Origin: a bacterium
GTDB lineage: Bacteria > Patescibacteriota > Dojkabacteria > JAKAPS01 > JAJZLI01
Direction of reading: 5' to 3'
Length of the DNA: 64,000 nucleotides
NCBI GenBank assembly: GCA_021791275.1
Contig: JAJYWX010000001.1
Coordinates: forward strand, 1,113 to 65,112
The translations under genes and the position numbers were made by a program. This document shows, in pieces, positions 13,823 to 57,771 of the stretch. Positions within the stretch are counted from its first letter, which is position 1. Each line of letters starts with the position of its first letter. The notes under the pieces are model-generated. The model searched no databases and was not told where the DNA came from. It was given only the letters and a program-made list of their open reading frames with translations.

Positions 13823-14240
13823 GGGGATGACCGGATTTGACAAGGAAATAAAGGATATATATGGCAAGTAAAGATTTCGCAATCTTTTAAAAAATTGTGA
13901 AAAAATTAAATGCAAATAAAATAAAAAGTACGGTTTCTGAATTCTTTGCTAAATTAAAAGCAAATGTTTTTACACCTAACTATAACCTAAATTTAGCATA
14001 AATAAATTTAGAGTAAGGTAAGAATTGCTTGTAGATATTACCTTGCTTAAACATTAATACAAGATAATGATAAGCTTCTCTTAGTGTTTGGAGATTTATC
14101 ATGAAAAAAATTGTCCAAAACACTTGAATTATCTTTTTTTATCAAATTTTTATAGATAATCCAAACTTAAATTTGATAAACTTGTAATTCCATATGTATA
14201 CTTTTCTTCATGGATGTGGGTTCAACTCCCACCATCTCCA
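13823..14240 (+). ncRNA. ssrA: tmRNA (SsrA, transfer-messenger RNA)
   Basis: 5' end GGGGATGACCGGATTTGACAAGG matches the E. coli tmRNA 5' end GGGGCUGAUUCUGGAUUCGACGG. 3' end GGATGTGGGTTCAACTCCCACCATCTCCA matches E. coli GGACGCGGGUUCAACUCCCGCCAGCUCCA. The acceptor pairs GGGGATG/CATCTCC with a G3:U70 alanine identity pair. CCA is not encoded. An internal candidate tag ORF is GCA AAT GTT TTT ACA CCT AAC TAT AAC CTA AAT TTA GCA TAA at 13960-14001 (ANVFTPNYNLNLA*), with the stop inside an AAUUUA/UAAAUU hairpin. Confidence 0.8.
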
Positions 14241-14276
14241 ATATATTTATGCTACATTTAAAACATTAAAAAAGAA

Positions 14277-27139: not shown

Positions 27140-28291
27140 CTATATGATTTTGAAGTTAATTAAGTCATTAAATGTAACAAAAATCATTAAAAGAATAAAA
27201 AATATTATACCCAAGATTGACAAATAGTACATCAATTTTTCATTTAATTTATAAGAAAATAACCCTTCTATTACTGCTAATAAAACATAGAATCCATCTA
27301 AAGGTGGTATTGGAAGTAAATTCATTATTGATAGAGATAATGATATTATTCCAAATATAAACAATAATCCCACTACACCATCTGTTTGGAATATGGAATT
27401 AGTGTACATATAGATACCTACAGGACCAGCAATCTGGCTTGTTATTATTTTGGAATTATTATGAATTATGGATTGATGAATTAAATAATAAAATCCTTGG
27501 AATGTAAGTTGCAATACATCATATGGAAAAGTAAAAATTGATAAAGCTTTTGATAAAAATGAGTTAAATTCAATATGAGATATTTCCTCTATAGATATCC
27601 CAACTGGTCCAGAATCCTTAGGATAATTAGATCTATCTAGAAAAGATTTACTATAAAATTTTCCTTCTGATATACCAAATAGATTTAAATTATTAACTTT
27701 ATAAAAATTAAATTTCAGAATTTTATTTTTATTAGAATCCACTAAACTTTCAATTTGAGAAATATTATGTATTTTTTTATTATCTATTGATTTTAAAATA
27801 TATAGCCCATTTAGTTTATCTTTATATACACTTGATGTTTTATCATTCGGAACTCCTGAGAATAAAACATTATTGACGTTAGTCCCAAATGTGAAATGAA
27901 AATTAGGTATTATATTTGAATAGTAAAATTTAAAATTTATTAATACTAGAAATATAAATAAAAACACTACTGCTGCTATAAAATTCATTACTACACCAGC
28001 TATTGTTATTAGAAATTTAGTTAATGGACTTGCTGCAGATAGTGATCCTTTAAGATTATTACTTGAATCATCCTCCCCAAATAAACTTACATATCCACCA
28101 AAAGGAAGAACATTTAGCCTATATTCAATTCCATTTCTTTTAAAGGAATATATTTTTGGTCCAAATCCAATAGCAAAGCTCTTTACAATAACACCTCTTT
28201 TTAAGGCAACAAACATGTGTCCCCATTCATGTATTATTATAAGTAGGCTTAAAAGGATTATAAAAATGAATAAAGTCAAAATATATTCCAT
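27140..28291 (-). CDS. rseP: site-2 protease (RseP/M50-family zinc metalloprotease)
   Basis: 383 aa. HEWGH (HExxH) in TM1, central PDZ-like region, NLLPIPPLDG motif. Confidence 0.8.
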   Translation of the reverse strand: MEYILTLFIFIILLSLLIIIHEWGHMFVALKRGVIVKSFAIGFGPKIYSFKRNGIEYRLNVLPFGGYVSLFGEDDSSNNLKGSLSAASPLTKFLITIAGVVMNFIAAVVFLFIFLVLINFKFYYSNIIPNFHFTFGTNVNNVLFSGVPNDKTSSVYKDKLNGLYILKSIDNKKIHNISQIESLVDSNKNKILKFNFYKVNNLNLFGISEGKFYSKSFLDRSNYPKDSGPVGISIEEISHIEFNSFLSKALSIFTFPYDVLQLTFQGFYYLIHQSIIHNNSKIITSQIAGPVGIYMYTNSIFQTDGVVGLLFIFGIISLSLSIMNLLPIPPLDGFYVLLAVIEGLFSYKLNEKLMYYLSILGIIFFILLMIFVTFNDLINFKII

Positions 28292-32385: not shown

Positions 32386-34239
32386 TTAATGATTACTAAA
32401 ATACCAGTTCATGAAATTTTTTACAACCTCTGCTGAATATGTACTAAGACCACCATTCTCTTCAAAAACAACCATAGCTATCTGAGGATTTTTAGATGGA
32501 GCAAATGAAGACATCCATGAATGAGAATGGTTATATCTATCACCTGATGTAGCTACATTTTCTACACCAAATTGAGCTGTTCCACTTTTTCCTGAATTAT
32601 CTGCAATTGTACTCTTCGCAGCAATATCTATCCCATCTTGGACTGCCATATACATACCTTGTTTTATAACATCTAAGTTTTTTGGGGAAACAAAACCTTC
32701 TCTTATTATTTTAGGTTTATATGTCTTTACCAACTTTCCTTGATAATTATATATATTCTTTATTATAGTAGGTTGCATTAATTTACCACCATTTGCTATA
32801 GCACTTATCCAATTAACAACTTGTATTGGAGTCACTTCTGTATATCCTTGACCTATGGCAGAATTTAGTAAATCCCCTGGAAGCCAAGATTGTCCAGTAA
32901 TTTCATATTTAGTTTTAGGATCAGCTATTATACCACTTACTTCCCCAGGAAGTTGTATATTCGTTTTTTGCCCTAATCCAAAATATTTTTCAAATTTAAC
33001 AAAATTATTTATCCCTATTTTCAATGCAGATTTAAAGGCAAAGACATTAATAGAATATTGTAAACATTTAACAATATCAGCAGATCCCCAATTAATTTTT
33101 GCATAGTTCTGAAAGGTTGTTCCATCATAAGTAAAGGTGCCAGGGACAGTAAAAACAGTATTTGGAGTAATTGCACCAGTCTGTAAACCAGCAGATAACA
33201 ATATAGTCTTCATTATTGATCCAACTGGTTGTTGCTCCGATATAGTACGATTTAAAAGTGGTGTATCAGGATTATTTAATAATTTATCATACTCAGTAGT
33301 ACTTATACCTGCCCCCTCAAAATCATTATTATTAAATGTAGGGTAACTAACCATCCCTAATATTTGTCCAGTATTTACATTTTCAACTATTGCCGCTGCA
33401 CCTGTAACATGATTAGGATTTGTTTTTATACTTTGTATAAGTAATTTCTGTAATTCACTTTGAATTCTTTCACTAATTGTTAATTGTATATTATCTCCAG
33501 GAACTGGCTGCTTCTCACCAAATTGGCTAACAACATTACCATAAGTGTTAATTTCATTTATTGTATATCCATCTTTGCCAGTTAAGTATTTATTCATACT
33601 CTCTTCAACTCCATACCTCCCAACAATATCAAATGGACTAACATTTTTTTCAGATAATAATTGTTGTTCACTTATTGGTCCTGTATAACCAATAATATGA
33701 GAAAATAAATTATTAAATTTAAATTTAATATATGAGTTGTCATTTACATTAACACCTTTAAGTCTAGAATCTGAAGAAATTAATATATCATTTTCCTTGC
33801 TAATATTTGTATCTATAGGTATTTCTACATAACCATTTTTCTTCCCAGTTTGTATTAATCTTGAAATCTTACTTTCTTTCATTCCTAATATTGGAGAGAG
33901 TATATTTATATCAGTATTAATCTGGTTCTCATTCAAATTTGAAATATTTATATAAACATTAAAGGATGGAACATTATATGAAAGTTGTTTCATGCCATTA
34001 CTGAATATTACCCCTCTAGGAGCAACAACAGTTTGAGTAATTAATTCATTATTCAAAGCAAGTTTATTATACTTATTATGATTTAATATTGATATATATA
34101 ATATATATAATAAAAAAATAATAAATATAAAAAAAATTATATATTTATAGAACTTAACAACAAAGTTTATATTTAGACTTTTATGGTCTCCATCGCCAGG
34201 AAATGTATTTAAATCTGAAATATCATCTATATTATTCAT
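32386..34239 (-). CDS. mrdA: penicillin-binding protein 2 (elongasome transpeptidase)
   Basis: 617 aa. N-terminal TM, SxxK-type motif (SIMKT), SxN and KSG(T) boxes; directly downstream of mreBCD. Confidence 0.82.
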   Translation of the reverse strand: MNNIDDISDLNTFPGDGDHKSLNINFVVKFYKYIIFFIFIIFLLYILYISILNHNKYNKLALNNELITQTVVAPRGVIFSNGMKQLSYNVPSFNVYINISNLNENQINTDINILSPILGMKESKISRLIQTGKKNGYVEIPIDTNISKENDILISSDSRLKGVNVNDNSYIKFKFNNLFSHIIGYTGPISEQQLLSEKNVSPFDIVGRYGVEESMNKYLTGKDGYTINEINTYGNVVSQFGEKQPVPGDNIQLTISERIQSELQKLLIQSIKTNPNHVTGAAAIVENVNTGQILGMVSYPTFNNNDFEGAGISTTEYDKLLNNPDTPLLNRTISEQQPVGSIMKTILLSAGLQTGAITPNTVFTVPGTFTYDGTTFQNYAKINWGSADIVKCLQYSINVFAFKSALKIGINNFVKFEKYFGLGQKTNIQLPGEVSGIIADPKTKYEITGQSWLPGDLLNSAIGQGYTEVTPIQVVNWISAIANGGKLMQPTIIKNIYNYQGKLVKTYKPKIIREGFVSPKNLDVIKQGMYMAVQDGIDIAAKSTIADNSGKSGTAQFGVENVATSGDRYNHSHSWMSSFAPSKNPQIAMVVFEENGGLSTYSAEVVKNFMNWYFSNH

Positions 34240-34241
34240 AA

Positions 34242-34739
34242 TTAAATATCTATCTTATACGCATTATCTCTATATTTTTTCTTAGAATAGAATAAATATA
34301 ATATTGAAGCATCTAATAAAATAACTATTATACAATAAATTATTAAACCAAAATTAATTTTGGAGAAAATACCAAATGAATAAGAATATATTATAAATAA
34401 TATATTAAAAATCAAACTTACAAATAAATACCCTAAAAAAGAAAGTATCTTCGTTGCTCTTAAATTTGAGAAAATATATATTACAAAAACTGGAATAAAG
34501 AAAATAATACTTGTAGAACCTATAGGTTTTAATAGATATAAATCTGTAATTACACCAAATATAAACGTTATTAAAAATACATATTTCCTTATTTTTTCAA
34601 AAAAATATAAAATTATTAGTAATACATATATTAAATTGAAAAGGATAATTGAGGTATATATCAAACTCAATATACCGCTGCTAAAAAGTGCTAATATTAT
34701 TAGCAATATAATATATGTCGCAAATAGAGTCTTATCCAT
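34242..34739 (-). CDS. mreD: rod shape-determining protein MreD (tentative)
   Basis: 165 aa polytopic membrane protein in the canonical mreB-mreC-mreD-pbp2 position. Overlaps mreC by 8 nt. Confidence 0.5.
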   Translation of the reverse strand: MDKTLFATYIILLIILALFSSGILSLIYTSIILFNLIYVLLIILYFFEKIRKYVFLITFIFGVITDLYLLKPIGSTSIIFFIPVFVIYIFSNLRATKILSFLGYLFVSLIFNILFIIYSYSFGIFSKINFGLIIYCIIVILLDASILYLFYSKKKYRDNAYKIDI

Positions 34740-35532
34740 ATTTTAATACGAAAACAGAATTTAAGTTATTAATATTAATAGCAGAATCAACACTTACAAC
34801 TTTAAATAAACTACTACTAGGACCATTTATTCCATTTATATAACCAATTATCAAATTTTTAGGCAAAGTCCCATTTAATCCAGAAGTTAAGACAATATCT
34901 CCAATGTGTACATTATCCAACTGAGTAATATCTTCCAACACTAGTCCACTAGAAAGACTTCCACTTAGTATTGCATTATTTTTATTAACAATAACAGGAA
35001 TATTTGTATTTATATTAGATATTAATCTAACTTTAGAATAATTATTATACGTTTTTGAAATTGTACCTACTAAATAATTCTTAAATATAACTGGATCGCC
35101 AACCTGAACACCCTGAGAAACGCCAGTATTTATATATGTGTAACCAAAAGTATTATTAAAATACATTATTTGAGAATAAATATAAGTACTTTTATTTTTC
35201 GAAGGAATATACCCTAACTGTTTTTTTAGAGCAATATTTTCATTTTTATATAAATTCAATTGAAATTCTAAAGATTTATATTTATATATACTATCCTCTA
35301 AGCTAGCATTTTTCCTTTCTATTGAATTTATATTATTTAAAGCACTTAAAAAGGTTCCTAAATTATAAGAAAATGATTCAGTTGAGACTCTCACTGGGGT
35401 TATAATTGGATCAAAAAAATTATATAGATATGCAAACCTAATTGTAAATAAGATTAGAAGTATATCTAATAATATATAGATAAAAAGACTATTAAAAAAT
35501 ATACCCTTATTATTTTTTTTTACCTTAACCAT
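34732..35532 (-). CDS. mreC: rod shape-determining protein MreC
   Basis: 266 aa. N-terminal TM, coiled-coil, C-terminal beta domains; follows mreB. Confidence 0.75.
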   Translation of the reverse strand: MVKVKKNNKGIFFNSLFIYILLDILLILFTIRFAYLYNFFDPIITPVRVSTESFSYNLGTFLSALNNINSIERKNASLEDSIYKYKSLEFQLNLYKNENIALKKQLGYIPSKNKSTYIYSQIMYFNNTFGYTYINTGVSQGVQVGDPVIFKNYLVGTISKTYNNYSKVRLISNINTNIPVIVNKNNAILSGSLSSGLVLEDITQLDNVHIGDIVLTSGLNGTLPKNLIIGYINGINGPSSSLFKVVSVDSAININNLNSVFVLKYG

Positions 35533-35535
35533 ATT

Positions 35536-36594
35536 TTATACATATGTATCTGAATCAGAAGAATTAATTGATTTCAATAAATCTATATCTTCTAAAATTT
35601 TAGCAGTACCTATAACAACGCTTTTAAGTGGATCATCTGCAACTACAAAAGGTACTTTTATTTTTTCTGAAAATAATTTTTTTATCCCACGGATAAGTGC
35701 TCCTCCTCCAGTAATATAAATTCCCCTTTCTGTTATATCAGAAACTAATTCTGGTGGAGTTTCTTCTAATGCATCATATATTGCTTCAATTATTATATTT
35801 AAGGAATTACTCATAGCTTCCCTTACTTCAGCCTCAGATATTGTTACTACCTTTGGCAAACCCAATAATATATCCCTACCTTTTATCTCAATTTTTTTGT
35901 TCTCTTTCCCCGGATATGCATTTCCTAAATTTATCTTTATTTTTTCAGCAGAAGTTTCTCCTATAAGCAGATTATATTTACCACGAACATAATTTATTAT
36001 ATCGTGAGTCAATTCATCTCCAGCTACCCTAATAGATTTGTCTACAACTATACCACCTAATGATATAACTGCAATATCTGAAGTTCCTCCACCTATATCT
36101 ACAATAAAGGATCCGGTAGCTTCAGTTATAGGTAGATCACAACCAATTGCAGCTGCCATTGGCTCTTCTATCAAATAAACATTTCTTGCTCCTGCTGAAA
36201 TTGCAGCATCTATGACTGCCTTCCTTTCTACCTCTGTTATGGCAGAAGGAATACCAATAACAACCCTAGGCCTAGCTATTTTGAAAAATTTTTGAGAATC
36301 TTTGTGTACTTTTTCTATGAAATAATGTATCATTTCCTTTGTAGACTCGAAATCTGATATCACCCCATCTTTTAAAGGCCTTATAGCTATAATAGATGCA
36401 GGAGTCCTTCCTAACATTTTTTGAGCATCATAACCAACAGAAAGAATTTCCTTGGTTTTAGTATTCATTGCAACAACAGAAGGTTCAGAAATACTAACAC
36501 CTTGATTTCTTACAAAAATTAAAGTATTAGCAGTACCTAAATCGATGCCTATATCAAAAGTAAAAATGTTCCAAAAAAAATCTGAAAATGCCAT
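35536..36594 (-). CDS. mreB: rod shape-determining actin homologue MreB
   Basis: 352 aa. DLGTANT phosphate-1 loop, EEPMAAAIG, VDIGGGTSD phosphate-2 loop (catalytic Asp present), GGGALIRG adenosine motif. Confidence 0.95.
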   Translation of the reverse strand: MAFSDFFWNIFTFDIGIDLGTANTLIFVRNQGVSISEPSVVAMNTKTKEILSVGYDAQKMLGRTPASIIAIRPLKDGVISDFESTKEMIHYFIEKVHKDSQKFFKIARPRVVIGIPSAITEVERKAVIDAAISAGARNVYLIEEPMAAAIGCDLPITEATGSFIVDIGGGTSDIAVISLGGIVVDKSIRVAGDELTHDIINYVRGKYNLLIGETSAEKIKINLGNAYPGKENKKIEIKGRDILLGLPKVVTISEAEVREAMSNSLNIIIEAIYDALEETPPELVSDITERGIYITGGGALIRGIKKLFSEKIKVPFVVADDPLKSVVIGTAKILEDIDLLKSINSSDSDTYV

Positions 36595-40125: not shown

Positions 40126-40758
40126 ATGCAAGGTCAAATAATACTCAACATTATACTTTTAGCTATTATTATAATAATTAGCATTTCCTTCCACGAGTTT
40201 AGCCACTCAATAATGGCATATATATTGGGAGATAGTACTGCAAAAGATCAAGGGAGATTAACACTGGATCCAACAAAACATATAACTATTTGGGGTTTAA
40301 TTTTTATGGTATTAACAGGATTTAGATTTGGATGGGGAAAACCCACACCGATTAATCCAAATAATTTAAAAAATAAATACTTATACATATTAATAATTGC
40401 TTTAGCAGGACCTATATCAAATATAATCCTTGCTCTATTTTTTGCATTACTATTAAAAATTAATATCTATGGAGATCTTACTAATTCAAAGATATTATAT
40501 ATTATAAACTACTTTATAATAATTAATGTAAGCTTAGCTATATTTAATCTAATACCAATACCACCACTAGATGGAGGGAACATATTAAATTTTATATTTA
40601 AAAAATCCTCAATAGAAGATTTCCTTTATAAATATGGTATATATATCCTTATAATAATGATATTACCTATAATCCCAATTAATGGATATGAATCATTAAT
40701 ACAAGTTATTATTACACCAATAATAAATTTCATATATACCATATTAATATTCCTGTAA
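40126..40758 (+). CDS. small M50/site-2-protease-family zinc metalloprotease (no PDZ)
   Basis: 210 aa. HEFSH (HExxH) in TM1 and NLIPIPPLDGG second motif. Confidence 0.65.
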   Translation: MQGQIILNIILLAIIIIISISFHEFSHSIMAYILGDSTAKDQGRLTLDPTKHITIWGLIFMVLTGFRFGWGKPTPINPNNLKNKYLYILIIALAGPISNIILALFFALLLKINIYGDLTNSKILYIINYFIIINVSLAIFNLIPIPPLDGGNILNFIFKKSSIEDFLYKYGIYILIIMILPIIPINGYESLIQVIITPIINFIYTILIFL

Positions 40759-40965: not shown

Positions 40966-41037
40966 GCCTTCTTAGCTCAGCGGTAGAGCAGCTGTTTTGT
41001 AAACAGCAGGTCGTCAGTTCGAATCTGACAGGAGGCT
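40966..41037 (+). tRNA. tRNA-Thr (anticodon UGU)
   Basis: Cloverleaf: acceptor GCCTTCT/AGGAGGC, D-arm GCTC-AGCGGTA-GAGC, anticodon loop TTTGTAA, T-arm GTCAG-TTCGAAT-CTGAC. Confidence 0.85.
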
Positions 41038-41049
41038 ATCAAGGCTTAT

Positions 41050-41133
41050 GCAGAGATGGCGGAGTGGACAATCGCGGCTGACTGTAAATCAGTTGCCATT
41101 ATGGCTACGGAGGTTCGAATCCTTCTCTCTGCA
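41050..41133 (+). tRNA. tRNA-Tyr (anticodon GUA), long variable arm
   Basis: Acceptor GCAGAGA/TCTCTGC, anticodon loop CTGTAAA, long variable arm TGCCATTATGGCTAC, T-arm GGAGG-TTCGAAT-CCTTC. Confidence 0.85.
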
Positions 41134-41137
41134 TTAA

Positions 41138-41210
41138 GCCTAGGTAGCTCAGTTGGTAGAGCATTCCCATGGTAAGGGAAAGGTCAGCGGTTCAATCCCG
41201 CTTCTAGGCT
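41138..41210 (+). tRNA. tRNA-Thr (anticodon GGU)
   Basis: Acceptor GCCTAGG/TCTAGGC, D-arm GCTC-AGTTGGTA-GAGC, anticodon loop ATGGTAA, T-arm AGCGG-TTCAATC-CCGCT, followed by a T-run. Confidence 0.85.
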
Positions 41211-41235
41211 TTTTTATTTTATAATGAATAATTAT

Positions 41236-41400
41236 ATGGCTGCAAAAGAAAATAGAAGATATATAAATTTTGAATGTACAGTATGTAAAGAGAAAAATTA
41301 TACATCTGAAAAAAATTTTGTAAATGATACTGAAAAAATAGAAATTTCGAAATTTTGCCCTAGGTGTAAAAAACATACTTTACATAAAGAAGTAAAATAA
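41236..41400 (+). CDS. rpmG: 50S ribosomal protein L33 (zinc-ribbon form); below the 60-aa cutoff of the ORF track
   Basis: Manual translation: MAAKENRRYINFECTVCKEKNYTSEKNFVNDTEKIEISKFCPRCKKHTLHKEVK (54 aa). CxxC...CxxC ribbon; conserved position upstream of tRNA-Trp/secE/nusG. Confidence 0.8.
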   Translation: MAAKENRRYINFECTVCKEKNYTSEKNFVNDTEKIEISKFCPRCKKHTLHKEVK

Positions 41401-41471
41401 GGGTTCATAGTTCAATGGTAGAACATTGGTCTCCAAAACCAATAATGGGGGTTCAATTCCCTCTGAACCTG
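41401..41471 (+). tRNA. tRNA-Trp (anticodon CCA)
   Basis: Begins immediately after the rpmG stop. Acceptor GGGTTCA/TGAACCT (G1:U72), anticodon loop CTCCAAA, T-arm GGGGG-TTCAATT-CCCTC. Confidence 0.85.
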
Positions 41472-41521: not shown

Positions 41522-41698
41522 ATGAATTTATTTAAATTTTTAAAAGAAGTTTTTGTTGAACTAAAGAATACTAAGTGGTATACAGGAAGAGATTTATATA
41601 ATTCAACAATATTAATAATCATCTTATCTATTAGTATTAGTCTTATACTATTTGGTATTGATGTTTTATTTCAAAAGCTTTTACTATTAGTATTATGA
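41522..41698 (+). CDS. secE: preprotein translocase subunit SecE (58 aa, single TM); below ORF-track cutoff
   Basis: Manual translation: [58 protein letters not shown]. The TGA stop overlaps the nusG ATG (ATGA). Confidence 0.75.
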   Translation: MNLFKFLKEVFVELKNTKWYTGRDLYNSTILIIILSISISLILFGIDVLFQKLLLLVL

Positions 41699-42240
41699 AA
41701 AGTAAAGAAAGTAATAAAAATTTTAAATGGTATGCTGTAAATGTTTTTACATCACATGAAAAAAAGGTTGCATTAATAATTAAACAAAGAGCTGAGACAG
41801 CAAATCTAGGAGATAAAATTGAAGATATCGTTATCCCTACTCAAAATAAAACTGTTATAACAGATGGGAAAAAGAAACAAATTAAAGAAAAAATACTTCC
41901 AGGTTATATACTAATAAAAATGGATTTGGATAAAGATACTTGGCCAATAATTAGAGATACTCAAGGAGTTACAGGATTTGTTGGTTCAGGAAATAACCCA
42001 ACCCCTCTAGAAGAAAATGAAGTACAAGCAATACTTAAATTCATGGAATTAGAAACTCCTGCAATTCAAACTTCATTTAATGTTGGAGATGCTATAATGG
42101 TTACAGATGGTGCTTTCAAAGATTTTAATGGTAAAGTAAATGAGGTAAATGAAGAAAAAGGTAAAGTTAAGGTTTTAATCTCAATATTTGGGAGAGAAAC
42201 CCCAGTAGAACTAGATCTAATGCAAATAAAACTTATTTAA
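41695..42240 (+). CDS. nusG: transcription termination/antitermination factor NusG
   Basis: 181 aa. NGN domain ([15 protein letters not shown]) and C-terminal KOW. Confidence 0.9.
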
Positions 42241-42250
42241 ATTAACAAAT

Positions 42251-42676
42251 ATGCAAAAAAAATTAATTACACAAGTAAAATTACAAATAATGGCAGGAAA
42301 AGCTACCCCTACTCCGCCTATAGGTCCAGCACTAGGGCAACATGGAGTCAATATAATGGATTTCTGTAATCAATTTAATAATCAAACTAAAGATAAAGGA
42401 GATTTGATTTACCCAGTTGTAATAGATATATACGAAGATAGATCTTTTAAGTTTATTATAAAAACACCACCTGCAGCAATATTAATAAAAAAAGAGTTAA
42501 ATATAGAAAAAGGATCAAAAGAATCATTAAAAGAAAAAGTCGGGAAGTTAACAAAAGAACAGTTAAGAAGGATAGCTGAAATAAAACTTCCAGATTTAAA
42601 TACAAATGATATAGAAAAAGCACAAAAGATAATAGCTGGAACAGCTAGAAATATGGGAGTAACAATAGAAGATTAA
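42251..42676 (+). CDS. rplK: 50S ribosomal protein L11
   Basis: 141 aa. L11 signature [18 protein letters not shown]. Confidence 0.93.
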
Positions 42677-42680
42677 AAAT

Positions 42681-43373
42681 ATGAAAAAAAGAAGTAAAAA
42701 ATACAATGAAATAAAAAATAAAATTGAAGAGAAAGGTTTAAATGATTCTTTTGAATTAGTTAAAGATGTATCAATAAGTAGATTTAAAGGTTCCATAGAA
42801 GTTCACATTGCTCTAAAAACTTCAAAGAAAGAGAATAAACAAAATATAAGGGGCAGTGTATTTTATAAAAATTCTGTTGGAAAAAAGAAAAAGATACTTC
42901 TTTTTACAGACAGAAAAGATATTAATGAAAAATTAAAGAAACAGTTTGACTATATAGGACTGGATGAATATATAAAGAAAATTCAAGAAGGGTGGATTGA
43001 TTTTGATATTGCAATAGCAACACCTAACGTTATGCCACAAATAGCTATATTAGGAAAAATATTGGGACCAAGATCTCTTATGCCTAATCCTAAACTAGGT
43101 ACAGTCACAGATAATTTAGAAGGTATATTAAATGAATATAAGAGTGGAAAATTTGATTATAAATCCGACCAAATGGGTAATATACATACTATAATAGGTA
43201 ATGTTGATAATACAAAAGAAGAATTATTAGATAATTTTAGTGATTTAATGAAATCAATATTAAATGTTACAGGTAAACCAATACAATCTGCTTTTAAAAG
43301 TATATATCTAGCACCTACAATTGGACCTTCAATTAAACTAGAAAATGACGATATCATTAAATTATTATCATGA
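42681..43373 (+). CDS. rplA: 50S ribosomal protein L1
   Basis: 230 aa, L1-like, directly after rplK. Confidence 0.9.
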   Translation: MKKRSKKYNEIKNKIEEKGLNDSFELVKDVSISRFKGSIEVHIALKTSKKENKQNIRGSVFYKNSVGKKKKILLFTDRKDINEKLKKQFDYIGLDEYIKKIQEGWIDFDIAIATPNVMPQIAILGKILGPRSLMPNPKLGTVTDNLEGILNEYKSGKFDYKSDQMGNIHTIIGNVDNTKEELLDNFSDLMKSILNVTGKPIQSAFKSIYLAPTIGPSIKLENDDIIKLLS

Positions 43374-45498: not shown

Positions 45499-46965
45499 TT
45501 ATAGTGAAAAAGGAAATATACTAGAATTCTTAATCAAATTTACAACATAAAGATATTTCTTACCACCTTTGAATGCATAATTAAATAGTAGATAATTATC
45601 ACCCGGAGAAATATAATAGTTTCCAATACTATTATTGGATATTAAATATTTATTATTTGACCCTATTGCTTGTTCATAAATGGACAAAGTCCCTCCCGAA
45701 GAATTCTTCTGTTGATAAAATATATAACTACCTAGATCGAATGGAGTTAAATTGTACATACTACTATAATCATTGCTAATAAGGGTATAAGAAGAATTTC
45801 CTATATAATAGGCATATAAGCTATTTGCCTTAGAAAGGATTATATAATTATTTTGGTCTCTAAAACTGACTAAATTATAATTTTTAGCAAACTTTATTCT
45901 ACCTGATAAGATATCATTTTTTATAGACAACAAATAATTATATCCGTTATTTGATGAAGCAACGATATATCCTCCAAAATTATTACCCAAAAGATTTGTC
46001 ACCTTTCCAGAAATCTTTGTTAAGGTGATTTTATCTGTTCCATCAATATTTGATATAAAAATATCAGTTTCGTTATTACTAAGATCATAATAAGTATATA
46101 CTATCTGTGATCCCAAAATTTCATAATGAAAGTCTTCAGATCCAAATAAAAACAGATATGCCTGCCCAGTAGATATATTTACACTTCCTAGCAAACTGCC
46201 TGATTGAATGATTATGTATTCAGATGACCCAGCAAAAGAAACCTTATTTATATTATTAATATATGGCAAATTAAAAAGCGACAATTTCCCAGAGGATACA
46301 TCATACAAATAGTAAATTTTATTATATTCTATAAGAAGATATGAATTTGAATAATCAGACATAATATTTATATTATACTTTGGATTAAAATTTAATTTTT
46401 TGGATAGATTAAATAGATATATAGGAAGAGTGCTTTTATTAATTTGAGATAAATCTAAATAATAAACTTTATACTCTTTTGATAAAGTTTCAACTATAAT
46501 GTATAAATAGTTATTTTGATATTTATAAAAGGTTTTATATACATATCCATCAGTTGATACTATACTCTGATTAATCTTACTAGGGATTAAGAATGCATCT
46601 ATATTTGTTATAATACTTGGTTTTACAGTGACTAAGCTTTGCCAAGCCACATAATTATTGGACTCAATCCTTAAATTATATGATCCCGGATTTAATGAAT
46701 TTAAAACGACAGGAGATGTTCCTATATAATGACCATTTAGATATACGTTGGAATTATTAGGAGTTGTATTTACTCGTAGTATACCAGTTGTTGTGATTGT
46801 AAAATTAGATAAATTTAGAGTGTATCCCCTAGCCACAAGCACAATTACACCCGCAACAATCAATAGTATCAATATAACAAAGAAAGAGTTTATCCTAGAA
46901 TATAATTTACTCTCCTTTAATTTATGAAAATTGCCCTTCTTGCTATTCTTAATGTCATTTTTCAT
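45499..46965 (-). CDS. membrane-anchored PEGA-domain protein with a repeat-rich (beta-propeller-like) ectodomain
   Basis: 488 aa. N-terminal TM (FFVILILLIVAGVIVLV), a PEGA-like segment (RVNTTPNNSNVYLNGHYIGTSPVVLNSLNPGSYNLRIE), then ~350 aa of Tyr/Asn/Ser-rich repeats ending -YY / -LY. Confidence 0.4.
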   Translation of the reverse strand: MKNDIKNSKKGNFHKLKESKLYSRINSFFVILILLIVAGVIVLVARGYTLNLSNFTITTTGILRVNTTPNNSNVYLNGHYIGTSPVVLNSLNPGSYNLRIESNNYVAWQSLVTVKPSIITNIDAFLIPSKINQSIVSTDGYVYKTFYKYQNNYLYIIVETLSKEYKVYYLDLSQINKSTLPIYLFNLSKKLNFNPKYNINIMSDYSNSYLLIEYNKIYYLYDVSSGKLSLFNLPYINNINKVSFAGSSEYIIIQSGSLLGSVNISTGQAYLFLFGSEDFHYEILGSQIVYTYYDLSNNETDIFISNIDGTDKITLTKISGKVTNLLGNNFGGYIVASSNNGYNYLLSIKNDILSGRIKFAKNYNLVSFRDQNNYIILSKANSLYAYYIGNSSYTLISNDYSSMYNLTPFDLGSYIFYQQKNSSGGTLSIYEQAIGSNNKYLISNNSIGNYYISPGDNYLLFNYAFKGGKKYLYVVNLIKNSSIFPFSL

Positions 46966-47028: not shown

Positions 47029-48039
47029 ATGTTAAATAATAATAAATTTGGACTAGACTTTGGAACATCTAATTCACTTATATCTCTTCAGAATAAAGGA
47101 ATAATATTAAATGAACCATCTGTAGTAGCAATATCAATAGATGACAATTCAATAATATCAATTGGGTATGAAGCAAAAGAAATGCTTGGCAAAACCCCAG
47201 AGGGAATAATATCAAAAAAACCAATTAAAGGAGGAGCTATAGCAAATTACAAAATATCTGAAATGATGATTAAATACTTTTTCTCAAAAGTCCCAAAGAC
47301 CAAATTTTTAACAGGATCTCAAGTTGTATCAAGCGTTTCTTCAGGATTAACTTCTGTAGAGAAAAGAGCTCTCTACGAAGCTATAATCAATTCTGGTGCA
47401 AAAAAGGTTTTCCTTATGCAAGAGACTCTACTAACTGCAATAGGATCAAACTTACCTATAGGAACATCTTCTGGAAATATGGTTATCAATATAGGCGGTG
47501 GCACTGCTGAATTTGCCATAATATCCCTTAATGGCGTTGTAGTTTCTGATTCAATAAGGGTTGGAGGTGAATACATAAATGACTCAATAATTAATTTTTT
47601 GAAAAAAAATAGATCAATAGTTATTGGGGATCAAATGGCAGAAAATATTAAAATAGAAATAGGGTCTGCGTTACCTTTAACTTCCCCATTAGAGATGGAA
47701 ATAAAAGGAAGGGATTCTATTACTGGAATGCCCAAATCAATAAATATAGATACGAATACTGTAGTTGAAGCTATCAAATCACCTTTAAATCTTATTATAC
47801 AGACTACTCGACAGTTACTAGAAAGAACACCACCTGAACTTTCTTCAGATATTATAGATAGAGGAATACTCTTAAGTGGAGGAACAGCACTATTAAGAAA
47901 TATAGATACTCTACTCTCTAGGGCAATAGGTATACCTGTATATATCAGCGATAACCCATTACTAACAGTCTCCAATGGAGCATCTGAAGCATTAAAGTAT
48001 ATGGATTCTCTTTCAAAAAATATAAAGAATCCATTATAG
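47029..48039 (+). CDS. second MreB-like actin homologue (divergent paralogue); catalytic Asp of phosphate-2 loop replaced by Asn
   Basis: 336 aa, roughly 40% identical by eye to the mreB at 35536-36594. It has GLDFGTSNS (phosphate-1), QETLLTAIG, INIGGGTAEF (DIGGG is replaced by NIGGG), and SGGTALL (adenosine motif). Confidence 0.8.
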   Translation: MLNNNKFGLDFGTSNSLISLQNKGIILNEPSVVAISIDDNSIISIGYEAKEMLGKTPEGIISKKPIKGGAIANYKISEMMIKYFFSKVPKTKFLTGSQVVSSVSSGLTSVEKRALYEAIINSGAKKVFLMQETLLTAIGSNLPIGTSSGNMVINIGGGTAEFAIISLNGVVVSDSIRVGGEYINDSIINFLKKNRSIVIGDQMAENIKIEIGSALPLTSPLEMEIKGRDSITGMPKSINIDTNTVVEAIKSPLNLIIQTTRQLLERTPPELSSDIIDRGILLSGGTALLRNIDTLLSRAIGIPVYISDNPLLTVSNGASEALKYMDSLSKNIKNPL

Positions 48040-48047
48040 ATTAAGGC

Positions 48048-49367
48048 ATGTATATATTTATATTATTAATAACAATATACTTAATTCTAGGTATAATAAG
48101 CATTAACTATCCTAAGCTACTCCTGCCAATATCTATATGCCTATTACCCTTAGAAAGATTTAACATATATATGGGGTTCTCTCTATCTCCATTAATATTA
48201 TATATACCAATAATATTACTATCTATATTTACTAATTTTAAAGAAATCAAAAAACAAATAAAGTTATATCCAATTAATAAAACTATTATTTATTCTCTTT
48301 TATTAATATTACTAGCAATAATTGTTACTGACGTTTTTGCAATAAATAGATTTTTATCATTAAAATCCTCAATATATGTCTTTATAACAGTATTTATGTT
48401 TATATTCGGATATTTATATATATCAATTTATAAAAATATAAAGACCATAATAAATAGTATAATAGTATCTGATCTAATAGTATCAATTTATGGAATAATA
48501 CAGTTTATATCTTATCTATTTTTCAAGAAGGATAGAATCGGATTATACAAGATTCTACATTCTTCCACAATTAATCCTAGTTATTTTTTAATAACAATTC
48601 ACCATATCTCAATTCTACGACCGGATTCAACATTCACTGATGTAAATACTGCTGCGGGATATATATTACTCTCTTTACCAATGATTCTAACACTATATAT
48701 TTTAAATAAAAGAAAAAAATATAATGAATATATTAATAGATATTTAATAAATTTATCCCCAATAATAGCAATATATTTTATATTGACTTTTTCAAAAAGT
48801 GCCTTTATTGGATTATTTATAATAATCTTGTATTTAATATATATTTATAAAATATATAAAAATACCTTATTTAAATATTTCTTTACTCTAACTGTTATTT
48901 TAGTATTAGCTATATCTTACAAAATTAACTTAATAAAGTATGTATATACGAAAGAAAAATATTCATATTTAGGTCATTTTATATTAACTAAATATTCTTA
49001 TTATATATTTGAAAAACACCCCATTACTGGAACAGGAATAGGAAGTTTTACTTACTACTTCGGAACATATATAAAACCCTATATACAATATTATTATAAT
49101 AATATTGATAATCCTCCAGTAATATTACTATGGCTTTCAGAGATAGGTTTAATAGGATTTATTGCATATCTAAATTTCTTTATAAATTATTTCAGAGATA
49201 TAGTGGGATCAAATCATAGAAAAAGTACTTTAAGGAAATACCTTGAAAAAGCATTTATTGCAGGTATAATAGGGATATTGATAGCAAATTTATTTCATTC
49301 CTATCTAACACTAATATTTAATTGGGAATTAATGGGAGTATTTTTAGGTATAATATATATCATATAA
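48048..49367 (+). CDS. polytopic membrane protein, O-antigen ligase/polymerase (Wzy_C / WaaL-PglL superfamily)-like
   Basis: 439 aa with about 10-12 TM segments. A C-proximal loop reads FEKHPITGTGIGSFTYYF...LLWLSEIGLIGFIAY, resembling the Wzy_C H...E.G..G signature. Starts 9 nt after the MreB-paralogue stop. Confidence 0.45.
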   Translation: MYIFILLITIYLILGIISINYPKLLLPISICLLPLERFNIYMGFSLSPLILYIPIILLSIFTNFKEIKKQIKLYPINKTIIYSLLLILLAIIVTDVFAINRFLSLKSSIYVFITVFMFIFGYLYISIYKNIKTIINSIIVSDLIVSIYGIIQFISYLFFKKDRIGLYKILHSSTINPSYFLITIHHISILRPDSTFTDVNTAAGYILLSLPMILTLYILNKRKKYNEYINRYLINLSPIIAIYFILTFSKSAFIGLFIIILYLIYIYKIYKNTLFKYFFTLTVILVLAISYKINLIKYVYTKEKYSYLGHFILTKYSYYIFEKHPITGTGIGSFTYYFGTYIKPYIQYYYNNIDNPPVILLWLSEIGLIGFIAYLNFFINYFRDIVGSNHRKSTLRKYLEKAFIAGIIGILIANLFHSYLTLIFNWELMGVFLGIIYII

Positions 49368-49415: not shown

Positions 49416-49820
49416 TTATTTTAAGGTTATTTTTGCTCCAACCTCTTCAAATAATTTCTTTATTTTATCTGCTTCTTCTTTGTTAACTGACTCTTTCAAT
49501 GCCTTTGGAGTAGCCTCTGTTATATCTTTTGCTTCCTTTAAACCTAATTCTGGATTAATGCTTCTAATAGCCTTAATAACTTCAATCTTCTTATCTCCTG
49601 CACTTTCTAGAATTACATCAAATGAATCTTTCGCTTCTTGACTCTGAGAACCATCTTGTTGTGCTGAATTATTATCTCCATTAGGCGCTGAAACGACTTG
49701 AACTTGACTACTAGCCTTTACTCCAAATTCATCCTCAAGAGCCTTTACCAACTCAGATATCTCCAAGATATTCATTTTCCCTATTTCAGAGATTATATCT
49801 TTAATTTTTTTATTTTCCAT
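49416..49820 (-). CDS. rplL: 50S ribosomal protein L7/L12
   Basis: 134 aa. N-terminal dimerisation helix, Ala/Gly/Ser/Gln hinge, C-terminal domain ...EAKDITEATPKALKE... Confidence 0.92.
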   Translation of the reverse strand: MENKKIKDIISEIGKMNILEISELVKALEDEFGVKASSQVQVVSAPNGDNNSAQQDGSQSQEAKDSFDVILESAGDKKIEVIKAIRSINPELGLKEAKDITEATPKALKESVNKEEADKIKKLFEEVGAKITLK

Positions 49821-49824
49821 AAAC

Positions 49825-50358
49825 TTATTTCACCCCCTCTTCTTTAGTATTTTTAATTGAATTTAAAACATTTATTAATGAAACTGCTGAGAAACTTAGT
49901 GAATTGACTAAGTTTTCCAGATTACCATTCAAAATATAAATCAACTTTAATATAAGAACCTCTATAGAATCTATACTTGCCAGATCTAAAATCATATTTT
50001 TATCTATAAGATTATTATTTAAAATACCAAATTTTATTTCTATTCCTAATTCTTTAGAAAAATTCAATATTTCCTTCGCAAAAATATTTGAATTATTAGG
50101 TGCAAAAACAACAGAATTATATCCGTATATCAAATCTAATAAAGTATTGGAACTATTATTTTTTGCTAAAACTCTCTTAAAAAGAGTATTTTTTATTAAT
50201 TTATATTCTCCGCCAATAGATTTTATTTTATCTCTAATAATTTCCAATTGATATACTGTTAATCCAGATGTATCCATAAAAAATATAGCTTCTGAGGAAT
50301 CAATTCCTTTTTCATAAGAAACTATTATCTCTTGTTTTTTTAATTTATTTATAGCCAT
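49825..50358 (-). CDS. rplJ: 50S ribosomal protein L10
   Basis: 177 aa, L10-like, immediately upstream of rplL. Confidence 0.85.
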   Translation of the reverse strand: MAINKLKKQEIIVSYEKGIDSSEAIFFMDTSGLTVYQLEIIRDKIKSIGGEYKLIKNTLFKRVLAKNNSSNTLLDLIYGYNSVVFAPNNSNIFAKEILNFSKELGIEIKFGILNNNLIDKNMILDLASIDSIEVLILKLIYILNGNLENLVNSLSFSAVSLINVLNSIKNTKEEGVK

Positions 50359-54609: not shown

Positions 54610-57710
<3,101 letters not shown>

Positions 57711-57771
57711 TACATGAGTAATTTAATTATAAATACCCACTATATCTATTCACTTTTAAAAGAGCATCGTG

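Follow-up and report, generated by a model that had tools for sequence, protein, structure and literature searches.

Two MreB proteins are encoded in the window analyzed here, a 64,000-nucleotide stretch of contig JAJYWX010000001.1 from an ultra-small bacterium of the Patescibacteria (Dojkabacteria, assembly GCA_021791275.1), and one of them has lost a hallmark residue of the nucleotide site. The gene mreB2 (47029..48039, + strand) encodes a second MreB of 336 aa, in which the codon AAT (47488..47490, +) places Asn154 at the position of the phosphate-2 Asp (D165 in E. coli, D158 in B. subtilis, D154 in actin). The housekeeping MreB (352 aa; 35536..36594, −), recognized by its open reading frame (ORF), Pfam and NCBIfam matches, and alignment, has the Asp, the EEP motif, and an N-terminal amphipathic segment. 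This Asp ranks with the best-conserved residues of the actin/Hsp70/sugar-kinase superfamily, and its mutation is a routine way of obtaining “ATPase-dead” MreB. Hereafter, MreBs with Asn or Asp at this position are referred to as Asn-type and Asp-type, respectively. On balance, the data favor a functional second MreB with a nucleotide pocket remodeled around the Asn, which would have an altered but not abolished ATP cycle and possibly an envelope role apart from MreC, MreD, and PBP2.

The ORF coordinates and all motifs quoted in the preliminary description of this locus (DFGTSNS, QETLL, INIGGGTAEF, and SGGTALL in mreB2; VDIGGGTSD in the housekeeping copy) were present in the sequence. The Pfam model PF06723 matched residues 5–329 of the 336 with 384.1 bits (cut-off 27), compared with 459 bits for the housekeeping MreB. 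The NCBIfam models PRK13927 and TIGR00904 gave 396.5 and 380.4 bits (cut-offs 293 and 365.75), and the housekeeping copy likewise scored above both cut-offs. The score against the MreBH model (NF010540) was 343.9 bits, below the cut-off of 515; therefore, the protein is not an MreBH orthologue. It shared 43% identity with the housekeeping copy and 40–44% with MreBs of solved structure. The AlphaFold2 model, computed with 53 homologues as input, had a predicted local distance difference test (pLDDT) value of 87.5 and a predicted template modeling score of 0.85. Its top Foldseek matches were MreB and Mbl, and it superposed on the MreBs of T. maritima, C. crescentus, and Geobacillus with template modeling (TM) scores of 0.92–0.93 and root-mean-square deviations of 1.9–2.2 Å. 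Judged by the family profiles and the structural model, the protein appears to be an MreB in all family-level respects but the phosphate-2 Asp.

The two copies also differ at the N-terminus. The housekeeping MreB starts with a hydrophobic, amphipathic extension (MAFSDFFWNIFTF) that includes “FSDFFWNIF” and is of the same kind as the membrane-binding N-terminal extensions of Gram-negative MreBs, whereas the Asn-type protein has no such extension. A hydrophobic pair, K-F-L in the window protein and R-F-F in the Asn-type consensus, was located inside the protein by sequence only; we take it to be the site of the L93/F94 membrane loop of T. maritima MreB.

The residue equivalence proposed earlier was confirmed by two kinds of alignment, and the superposition of the model supplied the structure-based check that the preliminary description had asked for. 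HMMER alignments to the Geobacillus (7zpt) and Caulobacter (4cze) proteins were gapless across the phosphate-2 loop (I-N-I-G-G-G-T-A-E, residues 153–161, with the retained T159-x-E161; 47485..47511, +), pairing “mvINIGGGTaE” with “mvVDIGGGTtE.” In a MAFFT alignment, Asn154 fell without gaps on D165 of “VVDIGGGT” in E. coli MreB, a protein of 347 aa in which the position of this Asp agrees with the published numbering. The preliminary description also had the phosphate-1 loop and the Glu of the EEP region as retained, and for the phosphate-1 Asp and this catalytic Glu that was borne out. Asp10 lies in the phosphate-1 loop D-F-G-T-S-N-S (residues 10–16; 47056..47076, +), where D10-F-G-T13 provides the Mg-site Asp (D16, kept in 64/64 Asn-types), and Glu132 lies in Q131-E132-T133 (47419..47427, +), corresponding to E143 in E. 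coli, E140 in C. crescentus, and E136 in B. subtilis. The adenosine motif had been described as kept, and this is true of its presence (S-G-G-T-A-L-L, residues 283–289; 47875..47895, +) but not of its wording: Thr286 replaces the third Gly, giving GGT for GGG, and the change co-varies with the Asn. A GGT adenosine motif resembles “SGGTT” of actin and “GGS” of Hsp70.

About a dozen positions discriminated the Asn-type from the housekeeping MreBs, each being at least 80% conserved within either group but differing between the groups. Among these, four border the nucleotide site: T22S in the phosphate-1 loop (Ser16 of the window protein, an Asn-type signature), E142P beside the catalytic Glu, D165N in the phosphate-2 loop, and G297T in the adenosine motif. 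Co-variation with Asn165 was tight, with T297 present in 61, P142 in 64, and S22 in 56 of the 66 Asn-types; the window protein has Gln at the position of this Pro (residue 131). The catalytic Glu was retained in 65/66 and the Thr after GGG (T170) in 64/66. The “E...T-X-[D/E]” motif, which is required for the release of inorganic phosphate (Pi) and conserved in 95.8% of MreBs (PMC9597168), is intact in the window protein as E132 ... T159-A160-E161. The alignments suggest that the Asn forms part of a coordinated remodeling of the nucleotide pocket and is not an isolated lesion.

Ten contigs, which came from four sources, encoded a protein identical to that of the window, and the next five matches (69–84% identity) all read INIGGGTAE. 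Among the 120 best homologues, the phosphate-2 column contained Asn in 66 cases, Asp in 51, and Ser in three, and Asp was found in 119/119 homologues retrieved with the housekeeping MreB. Across an alignment of 53 Asn-type proteins with 46–84% identity to the window protein, Asn154 was invariant, and the possibility that it is a strain-specific change, named in the preliminary description as a refutation of its proposal, fails. The Asn is thus a natural variant shared across the lineage and is not peculiar to one strain. A profile search, of which the best 150 of 1.84 billion cluster representatives were considered, returned 21 representatives with Asn and approximately 10 with other non-Asp residues; loss of the phosphate-2 Asp recurs among divergent MreB homologues.

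The same 150 representatives (P0241–P0390) contained other unusual active sites. The approximately 10 non-Asp, non-Asn proteins carried Ala, Ser, Cys, Leu, Gly, Thr, or Glu in the D165 column, and in 13 representatives with Asp165 the catalytic Glu was replaced by Gln, mostly in the form “..EQ..”. Both groups indicate several further natural MreB active-site variants in metagenomes.

A bootstrapped neighbor-joining tree was developed for 208 non-redundant MreBs, including those of 80 loci from diverse bacterial phyla. These loci formed a biased mixture from outside the window lineage, which provided Asp-type controls and nine additional Asn-type loci. A clade of 79 second-copy MreBs, supported by a bootstrap value of 99.5%, comprised every Asn-type protein together with Asp-type MreBs of Parcubacteria, Daviesbacteria, and Chloroflexota. 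Within the tree, 38 sequences of the window lineage and Dojkabacteria-like bacteria formed an all-Asn clade (100%), and the window sub-clade had 91.5% support. The housekeeping MreBs of the Candidate Phyla Radiation (CPR) formed a clade of their own (91%). From this topology, the second-copy lineage would be ancient and common to CPR/Patescibacteria and some Chloroflexota.

The window, loci L001 (GCA_021785355.1) and L003 (GCA_021803645.1), and a “Ca. Dojkabacteria” locus (L010) each have the two MreB copies on a single contig; at loci extending 10 kb to either side, this co-occurrence was seen in the lineage of the window and in a single genome of Dojkabacteria. For the same three genome pairs, the Asn-type proteins were 81, 69, and 67% identical, and the housekeeping MreBs 81, 70, and 71%. 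The corresponding values were 65, 55, and 58% for L7/L12, 60, 55, and 56% for Ndk, and 44, 33, and 34% for the PEGA-domain protein encoded next to mreB2. Since the identities of the two MreBs across genomes are equal, the Asn-type is constrained as strongly as the housekeeping MreB. The two genes are a true, long-lived paralogue pair residing in separate contexts, in agreement with the earlier description of mreB2 as a paralogue beside a canonical mreBCD–PBP2 operon.

The expected effect of the substitution depends on what the Asp does in MreB. The preliminary description assumed that its mutation abolishes ATP hydrolysis but not binding, a premise that stems from actin and does not agree with the MreB data. 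In Geobacillus MreB, the D158A mutation lowered ATPase activity about 3-fold, compared with 55-fold for the Glu mutant E136A, and both mutants polymerized normally. For B. subtilis MreB D158A, Pi release was markedly reduced, intrafilament nucleotide exchange was approximately 2-fold faster, disassembly on nucleotide wash-out was approximately 14-fold faster, and ADP-triggered depolymerization was much weaker; the filaments of E136A were ATP-locked and stable. Engineered mutants at the position of Asn154 (B. subtilis and Geobacillus D158A, S. citri MreB5 D156A, and E. coli D165 variants), the sole direct source on the effect of losing this carboxylate, show moderately lower ATPase activity, weaker ATP and ADP binding, normal polymerization, and faster nucleotide exchange. 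Biochemical work from 2026 has reopened the question of its role, showing that the Asp has a greater influence on nucleotide affinity, on exchange, and on ADP-triggered disassembly than on the chemistry itself (bioRxiv 10.64898/2026.07.24.740542).

The gene neighborhoods of the two copies are distinct. Downstream of the housekeeping mreB lies a canonical elongasome operon (32386..35532, −) consisting of mreC (34732–35532, −; Pfam MreC), a 165-aa ORF in the mreD position (34242–34739, −) that had no Pfam match, and a gene for a PBP2-type transpeptidase (32386–34239, −; Pfam PBP_dimer and Transpeptidase). Neither mreC, mreD, nor a PBP2 gene was found beside the Asn-type mreB in the window or at 13 other Asn-type loci. 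Instead, mreB2 is separated by 63 nt from a divergent gene (45499..46965, −) for a membrane-anchored PEGA-domain protein of 488 aa with a beta-propeller-like ectodomain (Pfam PEGA, 53.7 bits). A gene for a Wzy_C/O-antigen-ligase-like polytopic membrane protein (48048..49367, +; Pfam PF04932, 43.1 bits) begins 8 nt past the mreB2 stop codon and, because of this short gap, is probably co-transcribed with mreB2. A scan for sigma-70 promoters and terminators in this AT-rich DNA was uninformative (20 sites against 24.9 expected). The trio of PEGA, mreB2, and Wzy_C genes was retained in L001 and in L003, where the flanks are rearranged. In other relatives, the neighbors of mreB2 were genes for WecG/TagA, GT4 glycosyltransferases, MurA-like enzymes, and an epimerase, or a MATCAP/ATP-grasp cluster.

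Sequence searches with the PEGA protein returned only four homologues, reflecting fast divergence, and a profile made from locus ORFs was used instead. With this profile, PEGA-family genes were found adjoining second-copy mreB genes at a range of CPR loci, including those of Saccharibacteria and Dojkabacteria. Among the matches listed, such a neighbor was present at 11/23 loci of the second-copy clade and at 0/60 other MreB loci (Fisher p = 8e-8). The PEGA proteins consist of a non-conserved cytoplasmic tail of 0–26 aa, one transmembrane segment, the PEGA domain, and the beta-propeller-like ectodomain; the AlphaFold2 model had a pLDDT of 70, and Foldseek gave generic propeller matches. A RodZ-like partner role acting through the cytoplasmic tail was considered and rejected, as this tail is short and non-conserved.

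The following mechanism is consistent with these results. The Asn-type MreB would keep ATP binding and polymerization on the membrane through the hydrophobic loop. The loss of a negative charge at the Mg2+/water shell would alter the nucleotide cycle, so that Mg-nucleotide, especially ADP, might be bound more weakly and hydrolysis might be slower yet present, and filament stability would be governed otherwise than in the housekeeping MreB. A retuned nucleotide site and not a dead one is suggested because the Glu and Thr-x-Glu are kept under selection and three pocket changes co-vary with the Asn. The protein would work apart from MreC, MreD, and PBP2 and may organize the assembly of the envelope or of surface polymers, as suggested by the conserved PEGA/beta-propeller, Wzy_C-like, WecG/TagA, and GT4 neighbors. 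A bolder version, which we put forward with low confidence, is that CPR and some Chloroflexota possess an ancient second actin-like cytoskeleton whose nucleotide site, re-engineered by the Mg-site Asn and an actin-like GGT adenosine motif, acts as a different nucleotide-dependent stability switch and which, independently of MreCD–PBP2, patterns a surface or attachment apparatus with the PEGA protein and the products of glycan polymerase and transferase genes. Such a switch could consist, for example, in insensitivity to ADP-triggered disassembly and might lower the ATP cost in energy-poor epibionts.

Several observations weigh against a retuned MreB with an envelope role. The tree was built by neighbor joining only, and the nodes joining the Asn groups (Saccharibacteria and certain Chloroflexota, including “Ca. 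Amarobacillus” and Anaerolineae) had bootstrap values of only 39–54%; therefore, one or several Asp-to-Asn events are both compatible with it. The window sub-clade is more derived than the other Asn-types. Of the 75 universal MreB positions, 63 are conserved in this sub-clade, with 12 substitutions at otherwise universal sites, compared with 74–75 conserved in the Asn-types of Dojkabacteria and Saccharimonadales and 72 in the housekeeping copy. L17F, P108S, P115S, and A147T are among the changes fixed in the sub-clade, and P144T is also specific to it. In addition, the orthologue P0006 lacks the catalytic Glu (“VPNVLL”). Given these derived positions and the loss of the Glu, hydrolysis may be dispensable or already very low in the window sub-clade. 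The envelope role is suggested by gene neighborhood, and the PEGA link belongs to the second-copy clade and not to the Asn, since among the matches listed it was found at 8/14 Asn and 3/9 Asp loci, a non-significant difference. Direct contact between the PEGA protein and MreB is unlikely because of the short, non-conserved tail. Finally, Asn differs from Ala, and the D158A values are likely to be only a guide to the behavior of the Asn-type.

The model of the preliminary description was that the protein binds ATP but is essentially unable to hydrolyze it and forms a static scaffold with no turnover, as opposed to a treadmilling filament. We consider this unlikely, although part of it stands: the phosphate-2 Asp is lost clade-wide, D158A markedly lowers Pi release in B. 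subtilis, and the further pocket changes of the window sub-clade (L17F and P144T) and the Glu loss in P0006 point in the same direction. However, the almost complete retention of the catalytic Glu and of Thr-x-Glu would be hard to explain if hydrolysis were lost. Moreover, the ATPase activity of Geobacillus D158A is only 3-fold lower, and its filaments are destabilized at wash-out; stable ATP-locked filaments are a property of the Glu mutant, and this Glu is present here. The contrast with treadmilling does not hold either, as treadmilling is not accepted for canonical MreB in cells, where its movement follows cell-wall synthesis. The opposite possibility is that S22, P142, and T297 restore normal handling of Mg-ATP and the Asn-type is specialized only in its partners. 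The tight co-variation of the four pocket residues, the full retention of catalytic residues, the 74–75 universal positions kept by other Asn-types, and a constraint equal to that of the housekeeping copy would all agree with such compensation. Nevertheless, almost all members of the actin/Hsp70 superfamily have the Asp, and MreB mutants without it show a measurable shift in nucleotide handling. In addition, 21 Asp-type proteins of the second-copy clade in our data set already bear T297, and three bear P142; therefore, these residues are not strictly compensations for the Asn, and we regard full compensation as rather improbable.

It is also conceivable, at a distinctly low probability, that the Asn-type co-polymerizes with the housekeeping MreB and tunes mixed filaments, in the manner of MreB, Mbl, and MreBH in B. 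subtilis. Both copies share contigs in four genomes of two lineages, and most universal MreB positions are kept, but the two proteins are only 43% identical, and the context of mreB2, conserved with envelope and surface genes, lies wholly apart from mreBCD–PBP2. The 12 substitutions at universal positions might, in turn, be taken as signs of a decaying duplicate or of an annotation or sequencing artifact. This reading is effectively refuted by the intact ORF, the identical copies on 10 contigs, the level of identity across genomes, which is the same as for the housekeeping MreB and higher than for L7/L12 and Ndk, the fixation of the sub-clade substitutions across orthologues, and the confident AlphaFold2 model. 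A functional MreB with a remodeled pocket and a modified ATP cycle thus remains our preferred explanation.

Comparison with the canonical MreBs of E. coli, C. crescentus, T. maritima, and Geobacillus/B. subtilis demonstrated a common fold, phosphate-1 Asp, catalytic Glu, and GGGT-x-E sequence, with a hydrophobic pair, judged by sequence, at what may be the membrane loop. The Asn-type differs from them in the phosphate-2 Asn, T22S, E142P/Q, and G297T, in the lack of an N-terminal amphipathic helix, and in the linkage of its gene to PEGA, Wzy_C, and glycosyltransferase genes and not to those of MreC, MreD, and PBP2. The engineered Asp mutants carry a single Ala in an otherwise canonical pocket, whereas the Asn-type carries a natural Asn capable of hydrogen bonding together with three further pocket changes, all under long-term selection. 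Spiroplasma MreB3 (7e1g; 34% identity, TM score 0.89) is likewise a natural paralogue with a non-canonical active site that occurs beside canonical paralogues. However, the “E...T-X-[D/E]” motif is missing from MreB3, which has Asp for the Glu and Lys for the Thr (PMC9597168), and the region of the phosphate-2 Asp is preserved there, the reverse of the Asn-type. The lineage of MreB3 and its context, the swimming ribbon of a wall-less cell, are also different. Assignment of the Asn-type to an MreB3-like low-ATPase class was rejected, the catalytic motif being intact. In B. subtilis, Mbl and MreBH similarly represent several MreB paralogues per cell that divide labor among envelope enzymes; both retain the Asp, and in the tree the CPR second copy groups apart, together with MreBs of Chloroflexota.

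In the literature on MreB in Patescibacteria, Saccharibacteria, or TM7x, or in connection with PEGA, we found statements of gene presence only and no description of this subfamily. The Asn-type MreB is a natural variant, so far undescribed, within a known protein family. Its lineage represents a natural experiment on the role of the phosphate-2 carboxylate, with the Glu and Thr retained under strong selection. It also suggests that CPR bacteria, usually considered minimal cocci, can have two distinct MreB systems, one of which would be tied to surface and glycan genes and not to peptidoglycan elongation.

Further observations concern the loci of second-copy mreB genes. At four Dojkabacteria-type loci (L006 11068–19763, L031 11066–15925, L043 8930–13728, and L010 2152–4253), mreB2 is followed by a gene for a homologue of MATCAP, the tubulin tyrosine-carboxypeptidase family (PF08014), and genes for RimK/ATP-grasp ligases and a 7TM_transglut protein are located nearby. 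Peptide ligases and a carboxypeptidase encoded beside an actin homologue hint at C-terminal modification of proteins; the arrangement may also be no more than the known ATP-grasp/7TM neighborhood. Three contigs of metagenome-assembled genomes labeled “uncultured Gammaproteobacteria bacterium” (L019, L029, and L041) contain the CPR-type module of PEGA, second-copy mreB, and glycosyltransferase genes. Their MreBs are placed in the CPR/Chloroflexota second-copy clade, and the taxonomic labels are probably wrong. In the window, the nusG-rplK-rplA-rplJ-rplL cluster is split into two parts (41695–43373, +, and 49416–50358, −), and rho, ndk, the PEGA gene, mreB2, and the Wzy_C-like gene lie between rplA and the inverted rplJ-rplL. 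In L003, the ribosomal genes again form an uninterrupted run, located across the trio. In L006 and L007, too, rplJL is close to the Asn-type mreB, pointing to an old linkage between the two.

Elsewhere in the window, the 23S rRNA match (54611–57715, −) covers the full model and extends over 3105 nt compared with 2925 model positions, which implies approximately 180 nt of inserted sequence in one or more places. Insertions in rRNA genes are frequent in CPR; no intron family was found in this region at the gathering threshold. Two genes of the M50 family (RseP/site-2 protease-like) were identified at 27140–28291 (−) and 40126–40758 (+), the second being short (210 aa) with a partial profile match. 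A tmRNA gene is located at 13823–14243 (+; Rfam RF00023, 71 bits), and several tRNA genes are clustered at 40966–41471.

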